From: a virus
IMG/VR virus record: IMGVR_UViG_3300025644_000310
Span: 1 to 35,201 of that record
Reading direction: 5' to 3' (one strand)
DNA: 35,201 bases
Below, one piece after another: positions 13,954 to 18,018 of this stretch. The notes under the pieces were generated by a model. It had not been told where the DNA came from, ran no database searches, and saw nothing but the letters and a program-made list of their open reading frames with translations. A program made the translations under genes and the position numbers. Position 1 is the stretch's first letter. Every line of letters begins with the position of its first letter.

Positions 13954-15300
13954 TTAATTTACCTTTTTTAATGTTGGAAGTTTTATTTTCGGTAACTCTT
14001 TAACTTCACCGACTTTTTTTAACGTCGGGAGTTTAAGTTCCACCGGTTGTGGTGGAGCTTCAAAATTAGGTAAACATGCGTCGAGTATTTTCTCAAATTT
14101 TACAGTCATTGCATCAAGTGAGAACTTTGTTTTATTCATTATACCCTGTTTCTTAGCCTTTACCGTGTATTTATTATAATTATCAAAAACATCCTTTAAC
14201 ATTTTAGATGCGTAATTGTAATTTACAGTAAACCATTGAGTTCCTTTTATGTGCATTCCATTCTGTAATGATTCTTTCTTTACATCATTCATACTACCTG
14301 GTAATAATACAGACTTTTTACTATCCAGGAAATCTGTATGACCACTCCAGTTTGGTGCAATTACTGGTTTCTCACTTAAAGATGCCTCAAGTAATGGACG
14401 ACCAAATCCCTCACCGTGGGTGAATGAAACGTGAACCTTTACCTTTGGGTGATTGTATAAATCATTCATCTCATCATCTCTTAAATCACCGTGCAATACA
14501 TAAATGTTTGGTAAGTTACCCTCTACTGTCTGTCTTATTTGGTTCAACTTTGCGAGTATATCTTCTCTATCTAATATACAGGGTGTTGCTCCACTTGTTT
14601 TTAGAATTAGTGCAGGTTGGTTCTTCTTATTCTTAAATGTTTCCAAGAAGGTTTTAATCAGCATACCAAGATCTTTTCTGTCATTTCCTAAACCACCTTG
14701 TAACCAATGCCCCACGAATAGAAAACAAAAATCTTCTTTTATACTATCGAACTCGTCTACCAAATCCTTTGAAAATTCTTTTGTTGTTTTGTATATGTTT
14801 GTGTCTGCACCTTCAAATAAAACTTCTATTGGTGTTTGACATCTAACTTCACCAATTTTCTGTTTAGTTTGATTATCATGTTTATCAAATACGACCTTTT
14901 CAATACTTTCCTTAACAAATGTCGCTGGAACAATATTCAAGTTCATTCTATTTAATCCCTCTATCCATTCTGGGGGACACACGGTGGTTTCTAATCCTGC
15001 TGTGATACCAATATTAAATTTACCGATTGGTTGGAATTCATTTGGGACTACTATATGGATGTGAATATCTGGTTGTCTATCCATATTTGGATTATCTAAT
15101 AATCTCTCTATGATTGGAATATCATTTGGGTCATTTTCACTTAATGCATTTTGACTTGTGCTCCCCCACCTAACAGGCCATATTTTAATATCAAATTTAT
15201 TCATAGAAATCAATGACCTTGCAATATCTCTGGAGTGACTACCATATCCACTTCGAGTTCCCACCGGAGCAGTTATCAAAACTAAAGGTTTATAGCTCAT
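13954..15300 (-). CDS. GT4-like (GT-B) glycosyltransferase
   Basis: TRSGYG, HGEGFGRPLLEA, APNWSGHTDFL. Confidence 0.9.
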   Translation of the reverse strand: MSYKPLVLITAPVGTRSGYGSHSRDIARSLISMNKFDIKIWPVRWGSTSQNALSENDPNDIPIIERLLDNPNMDRQPDIHIHIVVPNEFQPIGKFNIGITAGLETTVCPPEWIEGLNRMNLNIVPATFVKESIEKVVFDKHDNQTKQKIGEVRCQTPIEVLFEGADTNIYKTTKEFSKDLVDEFDSIKEDFCFLFVGHWLQGGLGNDRKDLGMLIKTFLETFKNKKNQPALILKTSGATPCILDREDILAKLNQIRQTVEGNLPNIYVLHGDLRDDEMNDLYNHPKVKVHVSFTHGEGFGRPLLEASLSEKPVIAPNWSGHTDFLDSKKSVLLPGSMNDVKKESLQNGMHIKGTQWFTVNYNYASKMLKDVFDNYNKYTVKAKKQGIMNKTKFSLDAMTVKFEKILDACLPNFEAPPQPVELKLPTLKKVGEVKELPKIKLPTLKKVN

Positions 15301-15342: not shown

Positions 15343-16260
15343 TCAAACTTTATATAACGTAAATCGTTTTCTTGGTGTCCAGTTTTCAAGTGCAGTGTCC
15401 ATGTCATGTACCATACGTTTACACATATTTTTAGCTGACATTCCAATTTCTTCTAATTGTAAAAACTCCCTACCTAACTGTCCACATTCTTTTCTTTTTT
15501 CTGGTCCTTCATTATACCATTCTAATAATCTATCTGCTACATCATCCCATCTACATCTGTCGTCGAAAATATACGGTGTTGGAATTGAACCTTGTAAACT
15601 TCTATTTGATGGCCAGACTGGTTTTGCCCAATCACCGTAAGTAAGATCAGGATTGTCTTTCCATTTTCTGTCATCGTGTAGTGAATGAACCCAATCGTAA
15701 TCTTCAGTTGTTAGGAATTTACCCTTATATTTGAAGCCACTTGCATCCTGTAGACCACCTGTGGTATTTGTAGTGATTGGTGTTCCTGCCATTAGACTTT
15801 CGACTGTACCCAATCCGAAACCTTCATTACTTGCCATGTTTATAGTAACATCTGCAATATTATATAGAAAATTGAGTTGTTCGTCGTCTATCTTTTGGTG
15901 TGAGAATACAATATCGTAATCTGGACAAATTTCATTTACTACTACTGGTAAATCTGTTCCATTCTGGTCTACTGGTTGAGTGTGCATTAATAATACACAT
16001 TTGTCTGATTTCTCTTTGGGTAAGGTATCACAGAATGTTTTATATGCTAAAATCACGTCACTTGGAACTTTCCGTCTGATATTCCGATTATTCCAAAATA
16101 CTACGAAATCTTTATCTTTATCGTGGAACACTGATTTTCTATATCCTTGTAGTTTCTTCCATTTTTCCACATCTAACTCATTTATTGGGAAAAACTTATC
16201 TTCTGGAATACCATGTGGAACGTATGATAACATAACTTTACTTTTCTCGTTCATTTTCAC
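15343..16260 (-). CDS. GT4-like glycosyltransferase, C-terminal part
   Basis: YVPHGI, NNRNIRRK, SNEGFGLGTVES; own RBS AAGGAG before GTG/ATG. Confidence 0.85.
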   Translation of the reverse strand: MKMNEKSKVMLSYVPHGIPEDKFFPINELDVEKWKKLQGYRKSVFHDKDKDFVVFWNNRNIRRKVPSDVILAYKTFCDTLPKEKSDKCVLLMHTQPVDQNGTDLPVVVNEICPDYDIVFSHQKIDDEQLNFLYNIADVTINMASNEGFGLGTVESLMAGTPITTNTTGGLQDASGFKYKGKFLTTEDYDWVHSLHDDRKWKDNPDLTYGDWAKPVWPSNRSLQGSIPTPYIFDDRCRWDDVADRLLEWYNEGPEKRKECGQLGREFLQLEEIGMSAKNMCKRMVHDMDTALENWTPRKRFTLYKV

Positions 16261-16281
16261 TCCTTATTTTTCTAATAAAAC

Positions 16282-16845
16282 TTATTTTCCAATCCATTCA
16301 GTGTCGACACCACTTCTGTTTAAAACATCTTTATGCATTGCACAAGATTGTTTGGATATTCCCATTATCAAATCAGAACTCTCGTAGTATCTTGCATTGT
16401 ATAATGGTGATGGAAAATTGTCCCAAAGTGCATAATAAAATATGGGGATGAGTTGTCTAATTTCATGTTCCATTTGATATAACCAGCCCCAGAACCTCGG
16501 ATCAGTAAAATGTAAGATGGCATCTGGGTTTTCCAATTTCATTAGTTGTCGTAATAACTCTTGATTTCCATATCCACTAATAGGATATATTTTGAGGTAA
16601 GCATCTTCTATTCCAGTTTCTTCTCTAACTGAATCATTCATATCCACCACTTTACCGTCTTCTGGATGTTTTATTGCACCACCGGCCTGGACCCAATCGT
16701 ATTTATCAAGTGTACCCAGTACAAAATTTTTGGAAACTGTACCAACCCCACTACTCATTCTGAGTCAAAGATCATCTGATAAAAGTAAGATTTTTTTCTT
16801 CTTACTATTCAGATGATCTGTAGATACCTCCGTGATTTTATTCAT
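16282..16845 (-). CDS. GT4-like glycosyltransferase, N-terminal part, interrupted by in-frame TGA at 16765-16767
   Basis: From ATG 16845: MNKITEVSTDHLNSKKKKILLLSDDL*LRMSSGVGT...; same frame as track ORF 16282..16758 and as 15343..16260. Confidence 0.75.
16769..16819 (-). other. 51-nt hairpin inside coding sequence, ending at the codon before the TGA
   Basis: AGAUCAUCUGA (11 bp)/AU-UUUA internal loop/AGUAAGA (7 bp)/9-nt loop; arms are exact reverse complements. Confidence 0.8.
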
Positions 16846-17845
16846 ATTTATATTCCTGTAGTAATTTACCATTTTCATGTAATATCCATACATCAATTTT
16901 ATATAATTTATCTGTAACCGATTTACATTTTGATTCAACTGTATCTTCGTGTGTTTTATACGTCCACATTGATTTAACTTCTATAAACTTATTTTCAGAT
17001 TTTATAAAAATATCTGGAAAATACCTTCTATCTTTACCATTATTATACCAAAATTTTGGCATGCCTTTTTTATCTGTGAAAATATCACTTTCATCGTACA
17101 ACTTAAACAAAATATCTAACGCCTGTGGTTCATACCCTTGAACTCTTAATAACTTACCAGATGGTGTTTTATAATCTTTAAAATTTAATCTACTTTTAAT
17201 ATTTTTTTGATGAACTTCTGTATTTTGTTGAGCATTTCTAACTCCGTATTTTTTCAAACAAGTAGTCTCAGATTTTTCTCTGAATTCACTCGTTTTGAAG
17301 TAGTTAGATACACCATACTTTTTGAGCATTGTCTTTTTATAACTGTCACTTCTACTCTGAATCCGCTTCCTTGTCCATTTACTATTTGGATGGGATAACA
17401 TTCGTTCAACTACTTTATTGTCATTCATAGGATTATTTTTCATCATATATTCAGATTGACGTTTTATAGAAGAATTAGTATCTTTTGTAAGTCCACTATT
17501 CCAACTTTCACAGTGACCACCTAAAAATCTATTATATGTGTGTCTCGTATAACTATATTCTGTAAATTCACCACACCCACATTCACATTCAATTTTATGG
17601 TGTTTTATATTATAATTGTCAACCGATAAATTATGTAATTTTAAATGGTTAACTTTAATTGCTGAATTGGAACTTACAATATCACCACATTCTTTACAAT
17701 CAAACTTTCCAACAACATATTCACCATAATTTGATTTTGGAAATTTAAATTTGTATTCATACAATGATATACCGTGTTTAGATTTTAAATGTGAGCCATT
17801 GATTCTCATTTTCATCGTATCACCACATATTTCACAAACTACCAT
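16838..17845 (-). CDS. Free-standing PD-(D/E)XK homing endonuclease with C2H2 Zn fingers and KKYGV repeats
   Basis: CEIC...HLKSKH, CKEC...HLKLH, CECGC, two KKYGVxN repeats, YFPDIF...FIEVKS. Confidence 0.82.
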   Translation of the reverse strand: MVVCEICGDTMKMRINGSHLKSKHGISLYEYKFKFPKSNYGEYVVGKFDCKECGDIVSSNSAIKVNHLKLHNLSVDNYNIKHHKIECECGCGEFTEYSYTRHTYNRFLGGHCESWNSGLTKDTNSSIKRQSEYMMKNNPMNDNKVVERMLSHPNSKWTRKRIQSRSDSYKKTMLKKYGVSNYFKTSEFREKSETTCLKKYGVRNAQQNTEVHQKNIKSRLNFKDYKTPSGKLLRVQGYEPQALDILFKLYDESDIFTDKKGMPKFWYNNGKDRRYFPDIFIKSENKFIEVKSMWTYKTHEDTVESKCKSVTDKLYKIDVWILHENGKLLQEYKYE

Positions 17846-18018
17846 TTTATACTTCCACTAATCTGTTCATATTTTTCATCAATTAAATTAACTAACGCCT
17901 CTCTAACCGACACAAATTTTACACCATCGTCAGAATATTTAGCTATTATTTTTTGTAACTTTTTAAAAGTTACGACTTCTAATTCTATAGGTGCTATTTT
18001 TTTTGTATTTGATTTCAC
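17839..18018 (-). CDS. Small RHH-like protein (59 aa, not in ORF track)
   Basis: Manual translation from GTG: MKSNTKKIAPIELEVVTFKKLQKIIAKYSDDGVKFVSVREALVNLIDEKYEQISGSIKW; overlaps the endonuclease start by 7 nt. Confidence 0.6.
   Translation of the reverse strand: MKSNTKKIAPIELEVVTFKKLQKIIAKYSDDGVKFVSVREALVNLIDEKYEQISGSIKW

Follow-up and report, generated by a model that had tools for sequence, protein, structure and literature searches.

The window, by which we mean the whole analysed stretch of 35,201 nt, is a marine phage contig of 31% GC whose minus strand carries, in 5′ to 3′ order, a 59-aa gene that is conserved as a flank at the cassette loci described below, a free-standing homing-endonuclease-like gene of 335 aa (16838–17845), a short leader ORF of 26 codons closed by TGA (16765–16845) and a glycosyltransferase (GT) gene that is broken in two places. 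The final codons of the endonuclease ORF overlap the leader ATG (16845–16843). Past the first break, the remainder of the GT N-terminal Rossmann domain (R-M-SSGVGT... to TAA) occupies 16282–16761, where a 158-aa ORF runs from ATG 16758 to TAA 16282; past the second, the GT C-terminal domain forms a separate 303-aa ORF (15343–16254) that matches Pfam Glycos_transf_1 (PF00534, E 5e-9) and the PHROG glycosyltransferase annotation (E 8e-17). No Rfam families were detected within 16000–18000. A reassigned code with TGA as a sense codon was rejected, because TGA serves as an ordinary terminator of 12 of the 43 window ORFs of at least 100 aa, the GT C-domain ORF included.

Relatives of the GT gene without the first interruption were collected from IMG/VR (80 sequences, 55–85% identity) and from two isolates, Microcystis phage Mel-JY01 and Flavobacterium phage immuto. 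In all 80 sequences and both isolates, the alignment reads DD[L/M/F/I]R[M/L/I/V]xSG with no added residues, which bears out the homologue sequence (SDDLRM) that the initial annotation had given. At the DNA level, uninterrupted genes read GAT GAT TTA AGA ATG and the window carries 6 bases more at the same point; homologues are thus exactly two codons shorter, as had been proposed, rather than having two residues in place, and a simple nonsense mutation is not indicated. In an AlphaFold2 model (pTM 0.80) built for the closest uninterrupted relative, strand beta1 is KKILLL (residues 4–9) and the break falls in the beta1-alpha1 loop, before helix alpha1. Foldseek searches with this model matched MshA, BshA and PimB′ (E 1e-13), and the presence of two Rossmann domains with a Glycos_transf_1 C-terminal domain assigns the enzyme to the GT-B fold, GT4-like class. 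Beta1 is invariant across the GT family, and because it lies before the break, a protein begun at ATG 16758 would be without it, in agreement with the earlier claim that this start deletes the first Rossmann strand.

The reading frame first reported from ATG 16845 through CTT TGA CTC AGA ATG was confirmed in all of its coordinates and letters. Its 26-residue product consists of a non-conserved N-terminal extension followed by a rebuilt beta1 (KKKKILLLSDDL, immediately preceding CTT) and has the C-terminal sequence ...SDDL. The last sense codon, CTT (Leu; 16768–16770), is the proposed take-off codon; the TGA stop follows it directly (16765–16767) and is itself followed by CTC (Leu; 16762–16764), the proposed landing codon, after which AGA (16761–16759) and ATG (16758–16756) supply the Arg-Met of DDLRM. 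By alignment with homologues, TGA and CTC together constitute the 6-nt insert. Within the leader, an SD-like GGAGGT (16826–16831) lies 7 nt 5′ of a hairpin; the element is found in eight versions of the cassette and is missing from loci L108, L109 and L110. The poly-Lys stretch of the nascent peptide, also named initially, does precede the break but is not specific to broken alleles, since uninterrupted homologues have poly-Lys too. Two other candidates were discarded at this site, namely a small 5-bp hairpin over the window landing codon (not conserved in L099) and hops from the Asp codons instead, which on inspection of the sequence lead to stops.

The broken allele is both abundant and stable. 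Public assemblies contain the identical 158-aa ORF in 364 index blocks, the same junction is present in five fetched contigs (L086, L087, L089 and L090 at 99.9–100% identity, L091 at 96.9%), and a run search on words found every sampled word of 16600–17000 in 20 runs from 14 marine studies dated 2012–2025, a span of 13 years. With the same bases recurring in many independent assemblies and runs, the 6 nt are real and not the assembly scar that had been raised as an alternative. The exact junction 24-mer had no match among other IMG/VR records. Two exact-pattern matches to a 21-mer at the endonuclease/leader overlap (L100 and L101) and the single match from a stem-pattern scan (L102) were judged to be chance.

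The endonuclease-like gene belongs to DUF7487 (Pfam PF24308, E 1e-45), with a PHROG ‘homing endonuclease’ match (E 1e-7) and a weak TnsA-like match at its N-terminus. None of the 80 uninterrupted relatives has this gene upstream of the GT. Endonuclease relatives of 41–80% identity occupy the same place, adjoining the same GT gene, and every relative fetched at the GT locus, close or distant, lies directly upstream of it; conserved genes at this locus thus flank the ORF in some genomes and stand without it in others, as is typical of a free-standing homing endonuclease. A scan of metagenome contigs with the endonuclease protein gave one distant match only. Nine of the 11 classes of loci that carry the endonuclease or a remnant of it also carry, at the same residue, a stop-initiated gap, together with the hairpin and a 24–29-codon leader. 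These comparisons identify the break as part of a mobile cassette in which the DUF7487 homing-endonuclease-like gene is joined by a new start for the GT gene (N-terminal extension and beta1 codons), the RNA hairpin and the stop-initiated gap.

At L092–94, decay has left only the last ~47 codons of the endonuclease gene, joined to the end of the 59-aa gene upstream (L092:1256–1405, L093:2023–2163, L094:7825–7965); leader, hairpin and 13-nt gap are all preserved. At L105 and L111, the endonuclease gene abuts an uninterrupted GT gene and the DDLRM motif, otherwise near-invariant, is diverged at the same spot (DS-LQYF-SG at L105:1689–1800; DS-CTAY-SG at L111, about 2590–2680), which may reflect target immunity reached by another route, or a subfamily in which the target was never present. 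The DUF7487 family appears to target many other genes, because just 3 of its best 80 relatives (loci L109–L188), among 433 in IMG/VR that include giant-virus MAG contigs, flank this GT. Upstream of the L111 endonuclease gene (L111:1472–1507), the first ~19 nt of the leader (ATGAATAAAAT.AAGGAGG) recur, and this recurring motif may serve these phages more generally, as an RBS or a promoter-proximal element, and not be part of the bypass signal. An incomplete literature search returned no paper on this cassette or on DUF7487, which is weak evidence of novelty.

Following the suggestion that the same stop and hairpin be sought in related phages, 11 versions of the cassette were found, with gaps of 6, 8, 9, 13 or 15 nt and with UGA, UAG and UAA as stops. 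A 6-nt hop would serve CUU UGA CUC (window), CUU UAG CUA (L099) and CUU UGA CUA (L103); an 8-nt hop, CUU UGA GG CUA (L104); a 9-nt hop, CUG UAG CGG CUG (L095–98) and CCG UAA AAA CCU (L110, whose clade has Pro at this position); a 13-nt hop, CUG UGA followed by 7 nt and CUA or CUG (L088/L092 and L093/L094); and a 15-nt hop, CUU UAG followed by 9 nt and CUA (L108). The remaining version, CCG UGA CA AGA (L109, 2525–2620), has no matching landing triplet and may rely on a −1 slip on C-CCG or on a tolerant landing on ACA, or may be defective. The take-off codon is CUU or CUG in nine versions and CCG in two, and the stop directly follows it in all 11. Except in L109, the codons that precede the stop and Arg come from one family, CUN Leu or CCN Pro (10 of 11 versions; CUU>CUC, CUU>CUA, CUG>CUG, CUG>CUA and CCG>CCU), so that the match is one of codon family. 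The landing codon is the first same-family triplet past the stop (the first CUN in every Leu version), so that no earlier landing triplet lies in the gap. Irrespective of gap length and of stop codon, one hop restores the GT family consensus exactly in 10 of 11 versions, and the DD-L/P-R colinearity expected of programmed bypassing is restored in all 11. Furthermore, UUR encodes this Leu in 54 of 69 uninterrupted relatives and in none of the nine Leu versions, on either side of the gap. Among public annotations, the L108 gene call (L108:1950–3467, 505 aa) runs through the in-frame TAG of the 15-nt gap, the caller having ignored the stop; at the other loci, callers begin the GT gene past the gap.

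The hairpin (16769–16819) is made up of an 11-bp outer stem (16819–16809/16779–16769), a 7-bp inner stem (16806–16800/16790–16784) and a 9-nt A-rich loop, exactly as annotated, with its 3′ end at the second base of CTT. Folding of 111 nt of the window gave an MFE of −26.9 kcal/mol (z = −3.4; 1 of 200 shuffles as good). With a hand-set structure on six sequences, 98% of cells were paired compared to 27–50% in slid controls, and RNAalifold predicted the same structure. A nine-sequence covariance-model alignment, which was fitted to the structure and so favours it, had 96.6% of cells paired compared to 33–51% in slid controls (a level reached by 0 of 500 shuffles), with 11 of 21 pairs changed on both sides. 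A covariance model built from six sequences matched the unseen loci L103, L104 and L108 at E 2e-7 to 9e-4 and matched L109 and L110 weakly; in 21 uninterrupted loci, the hairpin model returned nothing below E 0.1. It is the structure of the hairpin that is conserved between versions, not its sequence. Because G.U pairs occur, the hairpin is expected to act as sense-strand RNA. Its 3′ arm consists of the S-D-D-L codons and its 5′ arm falls within the N-terminal extension, a stretch without other conservation in which pairing seems to dictate the amino acids. The 3′ end of the stem always reaches the take-off codon, the stop is also covered in some versions, and the hairpin probably helps the hop.

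In the last ten leader codons of eight versions, pN/pS was 0.15 with synonymous sites saturated, and by this comparison the leader is translated and under amino-acid-level selection in its beta1 codons. The 81-nt leader is 90–99% identical between contigs, compared to 74–84% for the endonuclease tail and 66–78% for the GT body. Leader identity so far above GT-body identity suggests that the cassette spread after the GTs had diverged, and the GT-body dN/dS between broken alleles (0.04–0.4) is for this reason not proof of function in the broken state. The versions are few, descend from one cassette and may recombine, and are accordingly not independent of one another.

The second break separates the two GT domains, which are fused in a ~465-aa enzyme in 62 of 63 complete relatives. 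In the window, a 27-nt linker (16255–16281) provides a second TAA (two TAA lie within 16255–16284), a new RBS (AAGGAG) and a new ATG. The window, L088 and L093/94 all have an N-domain ORF that stops within the inter-domain linker; L088 has an intact inserted ORF there (L088:1177–1725) with a NUMOD3 motif, which is typical of homing endonucleases, and L094 a decayed remnant (L094:8585–8860). The 3′ end of the window linker, including its good RBS and new ATG, matches the end of the NUMOD3-motif insert. The second break thus looks like the hit-and-run scar of a second homing-endonuclease-like insertion that left a two-ORF enzyme, and looks unlike random decay; the same two-ORF GT layout is found in the viable phage Mel-JY01.

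We consider it reasonably likely that the first break is crossed by a programmed short translational bypass, a natural stop-hop borne by the mobile endonuclease cassette. Matched codons, gaps that are out of frame in some versions and a covarying hairpin all favour this reading, which the initial annotation had reached from the window only. Ribosomes would start at ATG 16845, translate 26 codons and stall when UGA enters the A site, with peptidyl-tRNA-Leu on CUU; the tRNA would then unpair, the mRNA slide by 6 nt and the tRNA re-pair with CUC, such that decoding restarts at AGA AUG and the product reads ...SDDL-RMSSG... with no extra residue. When the take-off codon occupies the P site, the inner stem would sit ~13 nt upstream, near the mRNA exit, and each base emerging during sliding could pair with the waiting 5′ arm, favouring forward movement. 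For gene 60, a published proposal likewise has forward bypassing driven by pairing of the mRNA as it exits (10.1101/2024.12.09.627546). If T4 mobA/gene 60 is a guide, the endonuclease target (the DDLRM codons) is probably split by the gap, so that the carrier genome would escape cutting and the protein would be kept. Against a bypass stand L109, with its unmatched landing codon, and the differing wobble assumptions that CUU>CUA and CUU>CUC require (no tRNA gene was found in the window). Moreover, unstimulated stop-hops in E. coli are inefficient, being described as low-level in 10.1101/2024.12.09.627546, the second break in the gene could be read as decay, and the evidence is comparative, from few and non-independent versions.

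An alternative, which we hold to be unlikely, is a split protein, in which termination is followed by reinitiation and the 26-residue leader peptide, carrying beta1, assembles non-covalently with a protein begun at AUG 16758, as is often seen for genes that homing endonucleases have split. The conserved AUG stands 7 nt past the stop in the window, a genuine split is tolerated between the two domains of this gene, selection on the leader would fit this reading too, and MobA/MobE insertions are known that divide a gene into assembling subunits (10.1101/2022.08.31.505936). L108, L109 and L110, however, have no in-frame AUG before the end of the conserved glycine loop. In addition, the Leu-Arg or Pro-Arg codons between stop and AUG are kept in frame and differ synonymously only (CUC/CUA/CUG; AGA/CGU/CGA). 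Reinitiation would also have to manage at an AUG 16758 that has no SD, a 26-residue piece supplying a central beta strand in trans is without precedent here, and the same-family codons flanking the gap would be left unaccounted for.

We assign a similarly small chance to the broken alleles being non-functional or dispensable, with Leu-stop-Leu and hairpin as inherited features of a selfish element (for example, a scar of target immunity or an RNA element serving the endonuclease gene). Such a reading would suit the shared ancestry of the versions, the second break in the window gene and a GT divergence that is mostly older than the spread of the cassette. It is harder to reconcile with downstream ORFs that are intact in all 11 versions (158–468 aa, the longest remaining open for 468 codons) and with L092 and L093, between which the endonuclease remnant has diverged by 19% and both GT ORFs are still open. 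The amino-acid-level selection on the beta1 codons of the leader, the proper RBS of the C-terminal ORF past the second break, its layout being that of viable Mel-JY01, and the persistence of the allele across 14 studies and 13 years likewise argue against a dead gene.

Readthrough would have the leaky UGA-C read as Trp, so that the beta1-alpha1 loop gains two residues (SDDL-W-L-RM). In E. coli, a C after UGA makes for weak termination, and the gap is in frame in the window, L099, L103, L095, L110 and L108. The 8-nt (L104) and 13-nt (L088, L092–94) gaps, on the other hand, change frame, which makes readthrough impossible in these versions and excludes it as the general mechanism. With three different stop codons in use, no relative tolerating an insertion at this loop, and the matched codons and hairpin left unaccounted for, we regard readthrough as quite improbable; for the window taken alone, in which the gap is in frame, some UGA readthrough may nonetheless occur.

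Initiation bridged by the hairpin, in the style of T4 genes 38/25, is highly improbable. It would bring the SD GGAGGT beside AUG 16758 and yield a protein without beta1, and an SD-like GGAG does lie 4–8 nt 5′ of the hairpin in eight versions. The single-stranded SD-AUG spacing through the hairpin is nevertheless 17–22 nt, compared to 5–11 nt for T4 genes 38/25; SD and AUG are both missing from L108, L109 and L110, and such initiation would dispense with beta1, a strand that does not vary in the family and is under selection in the leader. For the 8- and 13-nt versions, frameshifting is a less economical account, as it would add 2–5 residues and finds no slippery site. An artefact of sequencing or assembly, or a private recent mutation, has a negligible probability given the identical sequence in many independent assemblies and runs and the related versions in other lineages.

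Programmed bypassing is among the rarest of recoding events, having been known for decades from one phage gene and later also from homologues of it and from one yeast mitochondrion. The byp elements of Magnusiomyces capitatus mitochondria are 27–55 nt long and differ from the gaps described here in their mitochondrial setting, with an unused codon in the A site and relaxed mitochondrial translation, and in being unaccompanied by an endonuclease gene or a conserved 5′ hairpin. They share with our locus the bypass of short inserted blocks, the colinearity of the protein and a tolerance of imperfect codon matches (PMC5009743). A candidate bypass in a Streptomyces phage terminase likewise involves a short gap in a phage gene, a slow A-site codon and support from comparison only, but has a rare UUA in place of the stop, a proposed regulatory role and no endonuclease cassette (PMC10732093; PMC5009743). 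In E. coli, synthetic stop-hops occur with matched codons around a stop, 9 nt giving one amino acid (PMC5009743; 10.1101/2024.12.09.627546). The CUU UGA CUC of the window has exactly that architecture; the synthetic cases are low-level, engineered and without stimulators, whereas the hop proposed here would be natural, conserved and presumably stimulated, and includes out-of-frame versions. A 2016 review knew of no natural in-frame stop hopping (PMC5009743), so that the locus, if our reading is true, would be a natural and conserved case of the stop-hop architecture.

The closest parallel is the MobA/gene 60 cassette of T4, in which the codons are wobble-matched, a stop stands at take-off, and the gap shields against the endonuclease and outlasts its loss (10.1101/2022.08.31.505936). 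In both systems, an endonuclease gene travels with a rebuilt piece of its target gene (an N-terminal extension plus a homologous stretch) and an untranslatable gap (10.1101/2022.08.31.505936; PMC5009743); a stop directly follows the take-off codon, the gap holds no premature landing triplets and is kept after loss of the endonuclease, and the product is colinear with uninterrupted homologues. The differences are nevertheless considerable. Our gaps measure 6–15 nt compared to 50 in T4, the target is a GT-B glycosyltransferase rather than a topoisomerase, and the endonuclease is DUF7487/TnsA-like rather than MobA. The cassette sits at the 5′ end of its gene, whereas that of T4 splits its gene mid-way; the large hairpin lies 5′ of the take-off codon and ends in it, whereas the take-off stem-loop of T4 lies 3′; and the nascent chain is just 25–29 residues long. 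There is no sequence homology between the two. With endonuclease, target, gap length and hairpin side all differing, the locus does not belong to the T4 cassette by descent. The broader proposition, that these loci form a second, independent natural family of programmed bypassing, in which DUF7487 homing endonucleases spread 6–15 nt stop-hop gaps as self-immunity inserts and a 5′ hairpin zipping at the mRNA exit pulls the message forward, seems to us evenly poised.

Were ribosomes to hop here, homing endonucleases would have in bypassing a recurrent means of shielding their own genome that leaves the host gene unharmed, and the 5′ hairpin would offer a simple natural test of whether mRNA exit pairing drives forward sliding. 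Gene callers would also be expected to split or truncate such genes systematically, as here, where the 158-aa ORF is called without the first strand. The natural series of gaps (6, 8, 9, 13 and 15 nt), stop codons and codon pairs amounts to a ready-made mutational series that is directly testable with short reporters. Finally, as a separate observation, a repeated L-P-K/T-L-K-K motif occurs at the end of a second glycosyltransferase in the window (13954–15300; motif at 13954–14060, minus strand) and at the start of many relatives of the first (L020–L023, L059).
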